From Escherichia phage NJ01: a stretch of DNA of 64,000 nt. The position numbers were made by a program, and so were the translations under genes. How positions within the stretch are numbered: position 1 is the stretch's first letter; the number at the start of each line of letters is the position of its first letter. Below, piece after piece: positions 15,495-53,915 of this stretch. The notes beneath the pieces are model-generated. The model saw nothing but the letters and a program-made list of their open reading frames with translations, was not told the DNA's origin and searched no databases. The DNA is taken from sequence record NC_018835.1. One strand, 5' to 3'.

Positions 15495-15503
15495 TAATGT
15501 ATA
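15495..15503 (+). promoter_or_regulatory. TAATGTATA promoter-like element
   Basis: Exact TAATGTATA 33 nt upstream of ATG at 15537, RBS AAGGAGGA between. Confidence 0.45.
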
Positions 15504-21079: not shown

Positions 21080-21097
21080 AGCCCCTTCGGGGGCTTT
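21080..21097 (+). terminator. UUCG-tetraloop hairpin
   Basis: AGCCCC-TTCG-GGGGCT then TT. Confidence 0.3.
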
Positions 21098-21167: not shown

Positions 21168-21386
21168 ATGAAAATGATGAAACAAGCTGCATACGGTTTA
21201 ATCTGTTTAGGTGCAGGTGTTGTGGTGTCAACCGCAGTTCCTGTAAGCGCAGTTCATCCATTAGTAACTGTCCCTGCTCCAGTAGAGAAGCTTAGCTCTC
21301 AATGTAAGCAGAGAACAATTCAAAATAACCTAGTTGTTATTTGTCCTGATGCTGAATCTAACGCTCTGAGAAAGATACTACCTTAA
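21168..21386 (+). CDS. small membrane/secreted protein (72 aa), possible holin
   Basis: N-terminal hydrophobic segment AAYGLICLGAGVVVSTAVPVSAV; immediately upstream of lysozyme. Confidence 0.35.
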   Translation: MKMMKQAAYGLICLGAGVVVSTAVPVSAVHPLVTVPAPVEKLSSQCKQRTIQNNLVVICPDAESNALRKILP

Positions 21387-21414: not shown

Positions 21415-21906
21415 ATGGATAACGCCGCATTGCCACCTGTACAACTAAACTTAAGCCCAGCTGGAATGGAATTCATCATGAAGCATGAGGGTATGAGAAC
21501 CAAGGCTTATAAAGATTCCGCAGGTATCTGGACTATATGTGTAGGGGCTACGCGCGATATGAATGGTTATCCGGTTAGACAAGGATTAACGTATTCTATA
21601 GAGGATTGTCTAGCTCTGCTAGATAGAGACACACAAGACTCTGTTCGTGCTACTCAGAAGAACATAAAGGTTCCTTTACTAGTTCATGAGTTTGATGCAC
21701 TCACTTCTTTCAACTTCAATGTTGGCAGTGGTGCTTTGAGAACATCTAAGTTAAGGAAGGTTATCAATGGAGAAGTGAAAGGGGATGTTTATTCCGAATT
21801 TCTTCGTTGGGATAAAATAACGGTCAGGGGAGAAAAGCAGAGAAGTCAGGGTCTTCATAACAGAAGGGTTGCAGAAGCTGATCTTTACACTGAAGGTAAA
21901 TATTAA
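21415..21906 (+). CDS. lysozyme (GH24, T4-lysozyme-like muramidase)
   Basis: HEGMRTKAYKDSAGIWTICVGAT matches the catalytic-Glu / xAYxDxxGxxTIGxG signature. Confidence 0.75.
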   Translation: MDNAALPPVQLNLSPAGMEFIMKHEGMRTKAYKDSAGIWTICVGATRDMNGYPVRQGLTYSIEDCLALLDRDTQDSVRATQKNIKVPLLVHEFDALTSFNFNVGSGALRTSKLRKVINGEVKGDVYSEFLRWDKITVRGEKQRSQGLHNRRVAEADLYTEGKY

Positions 21907-39412: not shown

Positions 39413-40696
<1,284 letters not shown>

Positions 40697-40944
40697 AATG
40701 CATCTCTTTATAAATGGTTTCCGTGTTCTTCTTCCAGCTAGATAAACCGGTAAGAACTCTCTGAGCAACTTCATCAGCTGCCTTACTTCTTTCAATCTCT
40801 AACTCTTGTTGATGTTTCTCTTTGTCTAGATTACTGCTGTCTGTTTGATATTCGTTAAACTTCATACCACCAAAGAATACAAGAGCTGAGAAAACGATAA
40901 ACCCTAAGTTATCACTTAACGTGTTTTGCATGTTGTCTCCAACG

Positions 40945-40966
40945 AAAAAAGCCACCCGAAGGTGGC
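40945..40966 (-). terminator. rho-independent terminator (minus strand)
   Basis: Minus strand GCCACC-TTCG-GGTGGC followed by TTTTTT. Confidence 0.5.
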
Positions 40967-41794: not shown

Positions 41795-41803
41795 TATACA
41801 TTA
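41795..41803 (-). promoter_or_regulatory. TAATGTATA promoter-like element (minus strand)
   Basis: + strand TATACATTA; 59 nt upstream of SSB-like start; overlaps a TATAAT hexamer. Confidence 0.4.
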
Positions 41804-50418: not shown

Positions 50419-50564
50419 CAGAAATTCCTGCTAATCCTCTGAGTTGTGGGAACAGCAATATTCACATACTCCACAACAAGGGCAAATTTCTACACTTGGG
50501 TCATATGCATCATCAACTGTCATCCCACACTTGGTGCAGAACACATCATCATCTTCTTCCAATA

Positions 50565-51221
50565 TTAACTCTCCAAAGTTTTCTTCAGAGCTGCCCACGA
50601 GATTGGGTAGAGTTTAGCCATCTCTTCATCCAGAGATTGAGCAAACACTCGAACTTCATACTGAGCATGGGAGGATAGTCGCTGACGACACAACTCAAAC
50701 CAGCCATACAAAGAACCAGTCCACACCCACTCAGTGATCATTCCCTGAGGAAGAACAAATCGGGCTTGTTCTGGTGCAACGAATTCAATCAACTTGTCAT
50801 ATGCTGCTAGAGAAGCTTCATATGCATCGTTAATCAACATTAATGCTTCAGCTCGTTCTCCATCGATGAGTTGAACCCCTGAACCTGCATGGAGGTCCGA
50901 AGGTCTCGCAAAAATCTCTTTAGGGATGAAGACTTCAACTGCTCCATCTTTATACCGCCGGGACATTTCGTTCCACGAGAATCCAACCTGATGCTTGCCC
51001 AACTGTCTCGCAATTGCGATAGGTGCTTTGCATCGGAAACTGACTTGTGGGTGTCGGAATGGAGTAACATGCTTCTCTCTTGCGAGGAAGTTGATGAGAC
51101 GTTCATCACGTTCATTTAAATCACCTTCACGGGTTACGCCAAAGGAAACTCGAGCTGCGTTTACTACGCTACGATCACTTCCCATAGCTTCGATTAATGT
51201 TGCTTGTAATTGTTCATTCAT
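50565..51221 (-). CDS. thyX: flavin-dependent thymidylate synthase (ThyX)
   Basis: ARQLGKHQVGFSWNEMSRRY matches the ThyX RHR-x7-S-x-NE-x-S-x-RY signature. Confidence 0.7.
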   Translation of the reverse strand: MNEQLQATLIEAMGSDRSVVNAARVSFGVTREGDLNERDERLINFLAREKHVTPFRHPQVSFRCKAPIAIARQLGKHQVGFSWNEMSRRYKDGAVEVFIPKEIFARPSDLHAGSGVQLIDGERAEALMLINDAYEASLAAYDKLIEFVAPEQARFVLPQGMITEWVWTGSLYGWFELCRQRLSSHAQYEVRVFAQSLDEEMAKLYPISWAALKKTLES

Positions 51222-51236
51222 CCGTGAATTTCCTTA

Positions 51237-51446
51237 TTAATATTCTTTTACATAATAAACCACTAAGGTTCCCATCTCTGACAATGTTGATTTATGTAAG
51301 CTTACTTTACTATAAATCTTTGGGGCCATCTTAAGAGCCTTCTTAAAACGGCGAGCATCTTTACGAGTAGCAAAGTGCTCTGTAACAGGTATAGCCGGGT
51401 CTTGGTAGAGGTAATATACCACCGTCCAATATTTTTTCATAATCAA
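51237..51446 (-). CDS. small protein, member of four-copy paralog family
   Basis: Shares TRKDARRFKK core and C-terminal Tyr with 53300..53915 trio. Confidence 0.45.
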   Translation of the reverse strand: MIMKKYWTVVYYLYQDPAIPVTEHFATRKDARRFKKALKMAPKIYSKVSLHKSTLSEMGTLVVYYVKEY

Positions 51447-51715
51447 ACACCTAGGGCAGTAGTTAAGAATGCTTTCAGGTTTGCTTCGGTCTGCATACCA
51501 GAGAGACTATAGTGTGCACCACTATTACGGTCAGGTACAACGAAAGCAGGGATGCTTCTTACACCATACTTAACAGCTTGTTCACGACCATCACCTTCAA
51601 GGATGTTAATCTCTTCTACTTCTACATCGAACTCCTTAACAACCTTCTCAAAGGTAGGAGCCATTGCTTTACATGGAGCACACTGATCACTATAAAACTT
51701 AATCACTTTAGACAT
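51443..51715 (-). CDS. thioredoxin-family protein (start moved to ATG at 51715)
   Basis: CAPC active site (FYSDQCAPCK), cis-Pro region RSIPAF. Confidence 0.65.
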   Translation of the reverse strand: MSKVIKFYSDQCAPCKAMAPTFEKVVKEFDVEVEEINILEGDGREQAVKYGVRSIPAFVVPDRNSGAHYSLSGMQTEANLKAFLTTALGV

Positions 51716-51716
51716 T

Positions 51717-51893
51717 CTATTCCTTGTTAATAAACAGGTTGATATGACGTTGGGTAGCAGGAACAACAATAAAAGATTTATACTGACCTTTTGCTAAGTC
51801 ATGAGCAATCTTCTTTGTCTGACCAAGACCCATCACACAGCCACTAACAATAATGGCGTGTGCTTGCAACTCTTCAGGGAGTTTTAGTTTCAT
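51717..51893 (-). CDS. small protein (58 aa), below ORF-track size cutoff
   Basis: ATG at 51893 with AAGGAA upstream; stop overlaps thioredoxin start (TAGAATG). Confidence 0.3.
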   Translation of the reverse strand: MKLKLPEELQAHAIIVSGCVMGLGQTKKIAHDLAKGQYKSFIVVPATQRHINLFINKE

Positions 51894-51905
51894 TCTTCAG
51901 GTTCC

Positions 51906-52091
51906 TTACAGCATAGCAAGAATGATAATAAGAGGTAATGTTATAGCGAAATTAATAAGAACAGCGCTGCCTAGCTTGATAGCTTTAACATCCTCTTCTG
52001 ATGGGTTTTCTTTAATTGCTAAATTTCGAGCTTTATATATAACAGTACCAATTATTAACGACCACACGGCCCACACAATCAGTGAAATCAT
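51906..52091 (-). CDS. small two-TM membrane protein
   Basis: MISLIVWAVWSLIIGTVIY...INFAITLPLIIILAML. Confidence 0.45.
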   Translation of the reverse strand: MISLIVWAVWSLIIGTVIYKARNLAIKENPSEEDVKAIKLGSAVLINFAITLPLIIILAML

Positions 52092-52100
52092 ATCAAACCC

Positions 52101-52280
52101 TTATGCAGTCAGGAGGTGAAGCAGGAATGGGATAACAACAGCTACGACAACCATGATGGTTGATGCTGTTTGAATCTCACCTTTCTTGTCAGGGGTTTCT
52201 TCAATAAGCTTGCCAGAAGCCCAATAGATACCACCACCAATAAAGACAGCCCAAATACCCCATACGATTGCTGATAACAT
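52101..52280 (-). CDS. small two-TM membrane protein, paralog of 51906..52091
   Basis: Translation MLSAIVWGIWAVFIGGGIYWASGKLIEETPDKKGEIQTASTIMVVVAVVIPFLLHLLTA; track ORF 52142..52396 is another frame. Confidence 0.45.
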   Translation of the reverse strand: MLSAIVWGIWAVFIGGGIYWASGKLIEETPDKKGEIQTASTIMVVVAVVIPFLLHLLTA

Positions 52281-52341
52281 ATATCTATATCCTTATAAAT
52301 AAGTTCGCCCCACCTCGGGTTAGGAGACAGGGCGGAGGTTT

Positions 52342-52953
52342 TTAGTAAGACACATCGCCACTTGAGTGGGACATGTTGCTCTTGACGAAGTAGCAATACT
52401 TGCCAAGACCTTCATTAATTTCTTGAAGCATACTCTGATCAACTGGATAAGTGGCTAAATCACCATCAAACTCATCCATCTTCTCAATAATACACATCAA
52501 GGTCATGCACATATCAGAGAGCATACCGTCCATATCTAGGTCAGCATTACCCTCTGAGAACCAAGCATGGGAGAGATAATTGGCTGCTGTGGCGTCCACT
52601 TTAACACAGTGGTAACGCATACGTTCAGCAATACGATCTCCTACTTGTCGTGCGTAATCTTCCAGCTCATCAAACATACCATGAACACCCTGAAATCCTG
52701 CACCAGAGACGTTCCAATGGTAGTTTTTAGCTTTGATATGCAAGAGTTCCATGTTAGCTTGTAAGCAGCTCAGGATGTGTTCTAGGCTGTTTCCACTAAT
52801 CATACCCTGCATTGTTTCAAGGCGAGAGATTGAAAGCTCGGACCGATCTAACATATTGTATTCGACACGACCAATCTCGGGTAAGTCAAAGACATTCTTA
52901 TGCATTTGGGTTTTCTCCATCAAGTTCAACTGAGTTAGCAACATTACGTGCAA
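52342..52953 (-). CDS. Dps / ferritin-like protein (start uncertain)
   Basis: HIKAKNYHWNVSGAGFQGVHGMFDELEDYARQVGDRIAERM matches Dps ferroxidase helix pair. Confidence 0.6.
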   Translation of the reverse strand: MHVMLLTQLNLMEKTQMHKNVFDLPEIGRVEYNMLDRSELSISRLETMQGMISGNSLEHILSCLQANMELLHIKAKNYHWNVSGAGFQGVHGMFDELEDYARQVGDRIAERMRYHCVKVDATAANYLSHAWFSEGNADLDMDGMLSDMCMTLMCIIEKMDEFDGDLATYPVDQSMLQEINEGLGKYCYFVKSNMSHSSGDVSY

Positions 52954-53266: not shown

Positions 53267-53275
53267 TATACATTT
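53267..53275 (-). promoter_or_regulatory. variant AAATGTATA element (minus strand)
   Basis: + strand TATACATTT, 40 nt upstream of gene start at 53227. Confidence 0.3.
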
Positions 53276-53299: not shown

Positions 53300-53509
53300 T
53301 CAGTAATAAATTACTTTAGACATAAAAGAACCCGAGTTAGGGTCTTCGTACCAGCGATGTATATCAGCGCTTTTTACTATTGTGCCCAGAGTCTTCAACT
53401 GTTTCTTAGCAATACGAGCCTCTTTGCGAGTGTCAAACAATTTGATGCTATCTTTTCTCGTGTGTTGATCAAGATCCCAAACAACACGAATCGCCCACAT
53501 CTTTTTCAT
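53300..53509 (-). CDS. small protein, paralog family member
   Basis: W.IRV...TRKEARIAKKQLK...Y-COOH pattern. Confidence 0.5.
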   Translation of the reverse strand: MKKMWAIRVVWDLDQHTRKDSIKLFDTRKEARIAKKQLKTLGTIVKSADIHRWYEDPNSGSFMSKVIYY

Positions 53510-53718
53510 TAGTAATGTACCTTTCCGCTGATATAAACACGACCAGAAGAATACTCCTTGGCCTTATGGATACTGATACTATTGACCACGTCACCAGTAA
53601 GCATAGTCTTTTTAAAATCTCGAGCCTGTTGACGAGTAGGAAGTGCAGTCATAGTCATACCACCTGATGCCCACTTAATCTTTGCTAACCAAAACTGTCT
53701 CATAGTGATTGGTCTCAT
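53509..53718 (-). CDS. small protein, paralog family member
   Basis: TRQQARDFKK core, C-terminal HY; start/stop overlap with neighbours. Confidence 0.5.
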   Translation of the reverse strand: MRPITMRQFWLAKIKWASGGMTMTALPTRQQARDFKKTMLTGDVVNSISIHKAKEYSSGRVYISGKVHY

Positions 53719-53915
53719 TAATAATAAACCTTGCTGTTGGCAAAAAGAGCACCTTCGTTATTCACAATAGCTTTTCCTATTGTAACCTTATTGAGTCTAA
53801 AAGTAGACTTGTATTGGTTTTTGACCCTACGGGCGTGTTCTCGAGTATTAACAAAATCTACAGCTACTAACTCTCCAGTCGTGTTATCATGTACACGAAC
53901 AATCCACTTTTTCAT
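53718..53915 (-). CDS. small protein, paralog family member
   Basis: TREHARRVKNQYK core, C-terminal YY. Confidence 0.5.
   Translation of the reverse strand: MKKWIVRVHDNTTGELVAVDFVNTREHARRVKNQYKSTFRLNKVTIGKAIVNNEGALFANSKVYY

Follow-up and report, generated by a model that had tools for sequence, protein, structure and literature searches.

Two adjacent minus-strand genes of Escherichia phage NJ01, here called A and B, are genuine genes under purifying selection. They are paralogous members of the phiEco32 gp66 family (PHROG 9296), a lineage-restricted group of proteins of 59-61 residues. They lie in a stretch of 64,000 nucleotides (sequence record NC_018835.1), referred to below as the window. 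Modelling indicates that both proteins are probably inserted in the membrane as hairpins. A sequence-only reading of the same DNA had put the pair forward as candidate holins; that assignment is not supported, and we contend that gp66-type hairpins should not carry holin annotation. The practical value of the present analysis is mostly corrective, in that 21168-21386, and not the gp66 pair, is the best assignment for the holin of this phage group. For A and B themselves we tentatively favour a non-lytic, accessory role in the inner membrane, which by analogy may amount to superinfection-exclusion or immunity-type (Imm/SieA-like) protection. The analysis shows that the genes are real and paralogous, and establishes the hairpin prediction, the place in the operon, the distribution, the fast divergence and the module exchange; the membrane location, topology, middle timing and whole functional role of the two proteins we infer.

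Coding status and operon of A and B

An ORF search of the window finds both members of the tandem two-helix pair where the sequence-only reading had put them, on the minus strand, a detail absent from that reading:

52101..52280, minus strand: ORF B, 59 aa; ATG start, TAA stop; SD AAGGA 9 nt before the start
51906..52091, minus strand: ORF A, 61 aa; ATG start, TAA stop; SD AAGGG 7 nt before the start
52142..52396, minus strand: 84-aa ORF that overlaps B out of frame, and also covers a conserved RNA hairpin (see below) and the 3' end of the Dps gene

B is transcribed first and A follows downstream, across a spacer of 9 nt. The dN/dS ratios of the two frames range from 0.08 to 0.5 overall; comparison with close relatives gives 0.08-0.15, comparison with other genera 0.2-0.5, and that of A with the Suseptimavirus copies 0.23-0.29. 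Being below 1 throughout, these ratios do not demonstrate positive selection. The overlapping ORF at 52142-52396, by comparison, is spurious, as had been supposed: it begins with TTG, matches no Pfam or PHROG family, and is interrupted by in-frame stops in five of seven related phages (Paul, 4E8, ECBP2, EK010 and EP335). The accompanying claim that B was hidden holds in so far as B falls below the 60-aa listing cutoff of the ORF track, but B is annotated in almost every public Kuravirus record.

The pair sits within a tightly packed minus-strand gene block, which reads gp68-Dps-B-A-orf58-Trx-orf69-ThyX and is headed by the promoter element AAATGTATA:

53267..53275, minus strand: promoter element AAATGTATA, located by pattern match upstream of the gp68 homolog; equivalent to P68 (phiEco32) and P87 (172-1)
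52898-53227, minus strand: gp68 homolog, first gene of the block
52342-52905, minus strand: Dps-like protein, gene directly before B in the block
52306..52334, minus strand: RNA hairpin (11-bp stem, three G.U pairs) with a U-rich tract behind it, situated after the Dps-like gene and before B
51717..51893, minus strand: orf58, 58 aa, PHROG 19504 (E 1.8e-45); no hydrophobic segment (non-membrane)
51443-51718, minus strand: thioredoxin, block gene after orf58
between thioredoxin and ThyX, minus strand: 69-aa ORF (orf69)
50565-51221, minus strand: ThyX, last block gene given

For both P68 of phiEco32 and P87 of 172-1, exactly the element aAATGTATA, which is recognised by the phage sigma factor gp36, is given in Table S3 of PMC8948821. 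The window sequence around the promoter is almost identical to the SU10 promoter between CDS68 and CDS69, which is grouped with the 'middle promoters', and CDS25-68 of SU10 are, by homology, middle genes. From this homology to phiEco32 and SU10 we infer that A and B are expressed in mid-infection from P68. A separate sigma-70 or gp36 promoter immediately before B was considered and rejected, as the hairpin and the SD leave no space for one and no matching element was obtained.

The hairpin at 52306-52334 matches a terminator-like pattern, with a minimum free energy of -19.1 kcal/mol (z -2.0). Across three genera its stem is invariant and its loop variable; the one change found in the stem converts U.G to U-A, and no compensatory pairs occur among these genera, the support for the structure thus being conservation only. 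It is likely a leaky terminator, an attenuator or a transcript-stabilising element. In SU10, thioredoxin, which is encoded downstream of the hairpin, was detected by mass spectrometry, and since this protein is made, termination at the hairpin is incomplete. The gp66 homolog went undetected in the same SU10 proteomics, in which the products of flanking genes were detected.

The gp66 family: identity, predicted fold and divergence

The window derives from a phiEco32-like podophage of the Gordonclarkvirinae, genus Kuravirus, and is most closely related to Escherichia phage 172-1, with which it is 96.7% identical in nucleotide sequence between 50500 and 54000. A and B are each 100% identical to their counterparts in that phage (ORF84/ORF85, with B equivalent to ORF85), which are carried in its record as hypothetical proteins, and B is 97% identical to phiEco32 gp66 (phi32_66). 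Both match PHROG 9296 over the full profile (positions 1-59 of 59), with E-values of 5.2e-34 for B and 1.7e-29 for A, and the two align with one another at 33% identity over 58 residues (BLASTP, E 6e-11). The paralogy proposed by the sequence-only reading is thus borne out, and the sequence similarity puts it far beyond chance. As PHROG 9296 is labelled 'unknown function', and as phiEco32 gp66 and 172-1 ORF84/85 are on record, these genes are already known, and belong to an ordinary phage membrane orphan family. Our literature search found no publication giving gp66-family proteins a function.

Broader searches returned little beyond the family itself. Scans of A and B against Pfam, NCBIfam and PADLOC gave nothing above noise, the only Pfam match of the pair being a sub-threshold one to DUF4310 (E 0.024), which scored 14.7 bits where the cutoff is 27. 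Among 5.8 billion proteins, a word-indexed search retrieved four near-identical clusters and nothing else, and a profile search run exhaustively over 1.84 billion representatives retrieved four real clusters together with one spurious repeat protein, and no remote relatives.

The sequence-only reading had described both proteins as two-helix membrane proteins, and hydropathy and structure prediction agree with that description. Each protein comprises two hydrophobic segments, at residues 1-20 and from approximately 38 to the end, with Kyte-Doolittle 17-residue means of up to 2.4-2.7. The uncharged hydrophobic stretches are 19-24 residues long, the first beginning at residue 1 and the second reaching the last residue, such that charges (3-5 Lys/Arg and 2-4 Asp/Glu) are confined to the central 12-20 residues. 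The final 22-24 residues are hydrophobic and uncharged, and neither A nor B has a hydrophilic or charged terminal domain. AlphaFold2, from alignments of only six sequences, models both proteins as helical hairpins, with helices at residues 2-28 and 30-58 in B (pLDDT 91.8), and at 2-25 and 32-60 in A (pLDDT 82.8). The turn is located at an invariant Glu-x-Pro (E28-x-P30), and the further invariant residues S3, W7, W10, G15, Y19, S40 and P51 are small or aromatic and intramembrane. Together with the conserved tip, these residues fit a specific packing interface. Hydropathy and a positive-inside count would place the Lys/Arg-rich loop in the cytoplasm and both termini outside (N-out/C-out). There are no conserved cysteines or other redox- or metal-binding motifs in the gp66 family; a redox role tied to the neighbouring thioredoxin and Dps was rejected for want of conserved Cys or metal ligands.

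By tblastn the family occurs at 139 places in 96 phage records, all of them Gordonclarkvirinae infecting Escherichia or Shigella, from the genera Kuravirus, Suseptimavirus and Nieuwekanaalvirus. It is kept in 96 of the approximately 97 genomes of the clade; 43 of the 96 carry two copies, which is the arrangement of the window, and 53 carry one, as do phiEco32, SU10 and Paul. The position of gp66 between the Dps-like gene and thioredoxin is common to 172-1, Paul, phiEco32, 4E8, ECBP2, EK010 and EP335. Phage 7-11 keeps Dps, Trx and ThyX, with no gp66-family protein and no small hydrophobic ORF in the block, and because it retains these enzymes without any such protein, the gp66 family is not their cofactor. 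In P0007, a variant from metagenomic sequence, the second helix is frameshifted.

Copies of the A type (at least 85% identity) were found in 43 records, in every case as the second place; A is a diverged paralog of B, and an accessory second copy. In the window it travels with orf58, which is present in 58 records, and the two form a module that is inserted or deleted relative to phiEco32 and Paul, where gp66 is directly followed by thioredoxin:

51716..52094, no strand assigned: A + orf58 module, 379 bp

The blastn breakpoints against phiEco32 fall at window positions 52095 and 51715. Nucleotide identity to ECBP2/4E8 is 90-96% across A and orf58 (95-96% for orf58), versus 71-78% for B, Dps, Trx and ThyX. 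The window therefore looks like a recombinational mosaic, in which a phiEco32-type gp66 is combined with a Suseptimavirus-type A + orf58 module that was exchanged between genera. The gp66-type copy is only 49-51% identical to the Suseptimavirus versions, whereas dCTP deaminase, gp68, Dps, thioredoxin and ThyX retain 78-95% identity; in EP335 the corresponding figures are 69% for gp66 and 74-97% for its neighbours. On these comparisons the gp66 family diverges faster than the genes around it.

Lysis genes and the holin reading

The recognisable lysis genes of this phage are distributed between two places in the window:

21168..21386, plus strand: putative holin, 72 aa, single N-terminal TMD, begins MKMMKQ; PHROG 11161 'holin' (E 4.8e-50)
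21415..21906, plus strand: endolysin, lysozyme-like and soluble, PHROG 7 (E 2.5e-46); N-terminus MDNAALPPVQLNLSPAGME hydrophilic
40436..40955, minus strand: overlapping i-spanin and o-spanin, PHROG 1152 Rz-like spanin (E 2.4e-38); o-spanin frame with lipobox-like MSAC
15495-15503: late promoter element P13, upstream of the 72-aa holin and the endolysin
41795-41803: middle promoter element P40, upstream of the spanin genes

The 72-aa putative holin is encoded directly upstream of the endolysin, in the same order as gp014/gp015 of Paul, and is present in exactly one copy per record in all 97 of 97 related records. It is annotated as 'holin class III' in MN045231, the original Paul record. Its opening residues, MKMMKQ, resemble the dual-start motif of dual-start holins. 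The N-terminus of the protein can also be read as a signal peptide. By position and by homology to a 'putative holin', the gene at 21168-21386 is the best holin candidate of this phage group, and the sequence-only reading, which had named it as a fallback, was nearer the mark there than with A and B. The same reading remarked that no holin sits next to the spanins; this is literally true, as the spanins (annotated gp035/gp036 in Paul) are separate from the holin and endolysin, but the putative holin adjoins the endolysin instead. No SAR or signal-anchor N-terminus was found on the endolysin, and because this enzyme is non-SAR and soluble, no pinholin is needed.

A role for A and B as holin, antiholin or another lysis-timing component, whether by forming holes or by modulating the 72-aa protein, is in our view distinctly unlikely. 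Their small size and two hydrophobic helices each would suit such a role, the 72-aa 'holin' is itself only putative, with an N-terminus that is possibly a signal peptide, and the spanins, which also belong to a middle operon (P40), set a precedent for lysis genes outside the late cluster. Moreover, phages 7-11 and GAP52, which are without the holin/lysozyme pair (PMC4281155), are also without gp66. Against this, A and B occupy an operon that is, by homology, of middle timing, approximately 30 kb from the endolysin and on the opposite strand. They have neither a charged cytoplasmic tail nor a soluble domain for timing control to act on, their predicted N-out/C-out orientation would be the reverse of that of two-TMD holins, and they lack a dual-start motif, unlike the 72-aa protein. 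A soluble endolysin leaves a pinholin unnecessary, the holin slot is occupied in 97 of 97 genomes, and over half of the genomes with the family (53 of 96) carry a single gene and not a pair. No match of A or B to the holin families of Pfam, PHROGs or NCBIfam was obtained, even at E-values of up to 1. Holins as a class are late genes, expressed along with morphogenesis and for the most part adjoining the endolysin. They are defined by temporally regulated lethality that can be triggered by energy poisons, together with release of the endolysin (PMC12894885). In a more radical form of the lysis reading, which we consider very unlikely, the tail-less N-out/C-out hairpins would be the true lysis clock of phiEco32-like phages, or an antiholin partner, made from a middle promoter and reaching a critical level late, with the 72-aa 'holin' then a secreted or signal-anchored accessory. 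Were this so, the hairpins would represent a holin topology and a regulatory layout outside classes I-III.

Possible functions and comparison with known systems

The tentatively favoured mechanism, of the superinfection-exclusion kind that the sequence-only reading had raised as its second suggestion, is as follows. A and B would each form a bare hairpin of two helices in the inner membrane of E. coli, with both termini flush with the periplasmic face, and the short charged tip, bearing the invariant Glu-x-Pro, in the cytoplasm. The genes would be transcribed mid-infection from the gp36-dependent P68, together with those for the Dps-like protein, thioredoxin and ThyX, and after a leaky hairpin. 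Helix-helix packing, either through self-association or through docking onto a membrane partner, might then protect the infected cell from competitors or from host membrane-acting functions, in the manner of T4 Imm or P22 SieA, and the second copy, A, could add a different specificity. The clade limitation of the family, its fast divergence, its variation in copy number and the exchange of A with orf58 all point to an accessory or arms-race role, and this pattern, with the packing residues and the tip, suggests that the proteins engage in a specific interaction within the inner membrane and do not form holes in bulk. Some observations sit uneasily with exclusion, however. Presence in 96 of approximately 97 genomes is not usually seen with an accessory gene that serves competition only; middle expression comes late for such a function, in comparison with the immediate-early class; and the hairpin has almost no exposed part on the periplasmic side, at which the ejection conduit of an incoming phage is first met. 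A Pfam scan of A and B detected no similarity to T4 Imm (of which PF14373, Imm_superinfect, is presumably the Pfam family) or to SieA.

Close behind the exclusion reading ranks a possible, if doubtful, part for A and B in host takeover or anti-defence, in which the hairpin would bind a protein of the host inner membrane and inhibit or redirect it. Transporters, proteases, enzymes of the cell envelope and membrane-bound effectors of abortive infection are examples of such targets, and modulation of larger partners in this way is known from small membrane proteins of bacteria. The conserved intramembrane interface residues, fast divergence and copy-number variation speak for takeover as they do for exclusion, and a function required in every infection fits the presence of the family in nearly all members of the clade. 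The Gordonclarkvirinae are also reported to be highly resistant to tested defence systems (PMC11990801), but this resistance is mainly to restriction-modification, which is not a membrane system. The hairpins have no PADLOC, Pfam or NCBIfam relationship, and with a conserved host target one would expect genera that share host species to have diverged more slowly than they have. We consider it unlikely that A and B serve as a membrane tether or assembly factor for the mid-infection machinery of the phage (for replication, or for a neighbouring nucleotide or redox complex), or that they are dispensable remnants without selectable function. In favour stands co-transcription, at a position fixed in three genera, with the genes for the Dps-like protein, thioredoxin, ThyX and dCTP deaminase, but phage 7-11 has the same enzymes and no small hydrophobic ORF nearby, and the family is without Cys or any other redox- or metal-binding motif. 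The frameshifted second helix of the P0007 metagenomic variant also speaks for this proposal; a remnant, however, is at odds with purifying selection (dN/dS 0.08-0.5) and with intact ORFs in 96 genomes.

The molecular biology of the Gordonclarkvirinae is poorly studied (BASEL study, PMC11990801), and the podophage group is both abundant and therapeutically used. If the favoured exclusion reading, or a host interaction, proves true, then the gp66 family would constitute a minimal inner-membrane effector of approximately 60 aa in a virulent podophage group, and its one- and two-copy variants and diverged types would offer a natural specificity series. Experiments on the family are now feasible, since an engineered K-12 strain serves as host for the BASEL isolates Bas86-93.

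Foldseek searches of the models against PDB and BFVD retrieved generic hairpins and the family's own members only. The generic hairpins were mainly ATP synthase c subunits, with non-significant E-values (0.6 or worse). Subunit c of the F-type ATP synthase provides the best overlay on the B model (TM approximately 0.8; rmsd 1.3 A over 52 residues), and shares with B a Gly-rich first helix, a polar loop with Pro, and the predicted N-out/C-out orientation. The two are nevertheless only 21% identical, at a Foldseek E of at least 0.6 and with no sequence-family (Pfam) match, and the ion-binding carboxylate of subunit c helix 2 has no equivalent, as no gp66-family member has an acidic residue in its second helix. 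Homology to subunit c was therefore rejected on the grounds of non-significant E-values, the lack of the carboxylate and the lack of a family match, and the likeness in shape is an analogy generic to tight TM hairpins. By the same analogy, oligomer formation through self-association of the hairpins would be plausible.

In class II holins the N- and C-termini are both cytoplasmic, the C-terminal tail is charged and a dual start is frequent; their genes are late and linked to that of the endolysin, which for pinholins is typically of the SAR type. Proteins of these kinds, such as S21 68 of phage 21, resemble A and B in size (approximately 60-70 aa) and in having two TM helices. A and B differ from them in being without tails, in the predicted cytoplasmic placement of the charged loop, in their middle operon, in the soluble endolysin of the phage, and in showing no sequence similarity.

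Under the exclusion reading that we tentatively prefer, the systems to compare are T4 Imm (83 aa), P22 SieA (162 aa, 3 TMDs) and HK97 gp15. SieA comes from a podophage, in which it provides exclusion at the inner membrane, and its types share less than 30% sequence identity; plating assays and assays of K+ efflux or DNA entry have been carried out on it (PMC10883804). Neither Imm nor SieA has detectable homology to A and B, which fall far short of SieA in size and lack any periplasmic or cytoplasmic domain beyond a tip of approximately 15 residues; and no exclusion phenotype is known for any Kuravirus. Nonetheless, Imm, SieA, gp15 and the gp66 hairpins, if these insert as predicted, are alike in being small phage proteins of the inner membrane that have strongly diverged types and are without an enzymatic domain, and T4 Imm is expressed in lytic growth before the late genes, as would be the case for A and B under P68.

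Probable recombination and possible loss in the hairpin family

Relative to phiEco32 and Paul, the interval 51716-52094 is a 379-bp indel that comprises both A, the 61-aa paralog of the gp66 ortholog B, and orf58, the adjacent 58-aa non-membrane ORF (51717-51893, minus strand). The DNA of this segment is 90-96% identical to that of Suseptimavirus phages, despite flanks that have diverged to 71-78% identity, and this disparity points to recent inter-genus recombination as the origin of the A and orf58 segment. The two genes can also be found apart, as phages of the EK010 and EP335 types carry orf58 without A. Whereas the two-helix hairpin family to which A and B belong is confined to the clade, orf58 is weakly related to sequences beyond it: relatives at 50% identity in Salmonella phage PKM.Hi.22.6 and phage PKM.Lu.22.1, and a marginal match in an Acinetobacter phage.

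Among 97 records that match the DNA of this region and carry the putative holin, only 96 have a detectable member of the gp66 family, and thus one genome may have naturally lost the gene. The 62-aa metagenomic protein P0007, an ECBP2-type member of this family, turns into unrelated hydrophilic sequence after residue 45 (…MVVCFRSLSTCGLHNEIKAP), reflecting either an error in sequencing or a natural frameshift that deletes the second helix.

Conservation is apparent upstream of B, where the 61-nt spacer that separates it from a Dps-like gene retains 84-90% nucleotide identity between genera, compared with 71-82% in the flanking genes. This spacer region contains the following element:

52306-52334, minus strand: RNA hairpin, conserved, with a U-rich tail and three G.U pairs in its stem

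The loop of this hairpin varies and its stem is invariant; no compensatory change was found in the stem.

The putative holin

The holin status of the 72-aa ORF at 21168-21386 is putative, being based on position and annotation only. Its product has a dual-start-like N-terminus (MKMMKQ), a single N-terminal hydrophobic segment followed by 'VSA-VH', and two Cys in its tail. 'VSA-VH' could alternatively be read as a signal-peptidase site, and the protein's second, weak PHROG match (E 0.027) is an Rz-like spanin. A further structure lies just upstream:

21080-21096, plus strand: GC-rich hairpin after the tail-fibre gene

Neighbouring small ORFs and gp36-sigma elements

Four paralogous minus-strand ORFs of ~65-69 aa lie within 53300-53915 and at 51237-51446, and have in common the motif 'F.TR(K/E).AR.(F/A)KK' and, at the C-terminus, '(V/I)(Y/H)Y':

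53718-53915, 53509-53718 and 53300-53509, minus strand: three tandem paralogs, equivalent to phiEco32 gp71/70/69
51237-51446, minus strand: dispersed fourth paralog (PHROG 4939), flanked by the thioredoxin and ThyX genes

phiEco32 lacks this fourth copy, and the Suseptimavirus counterpart is just ~40% identical to it.

Another small ORF is annotated as a membrane protein in 172-1 and Paul:

50431-50598, minus strand: PHROG 16989, 'membrane protein'

No hydrophobic segment was found in its acidic, Cys-rich product (CTKCG...CPCCGVCEYCC), which looks like a zinc-ribbon protein, rendering the annotation doubtful.

Genome-wide, matches to the tAATGTAtA consensus of the phage sigma factor gp36 with at most one mismatch are not above chance (22 versus 20 expected), and the meaningful matches are only those at the right positions:

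8019, 15495 and 32326, plus strand: gp36-sigma elements matching tAATGTAtA
41795, 48566 and 53267, minus strand: gp36-sigma elements matching tAATGTAtA

By this consensus, all six of the phiEco32 gp36-sigma promoter elements, P6, P13, P26, P40, P58 and P68, are locatable in the window, at the above positions in that order.
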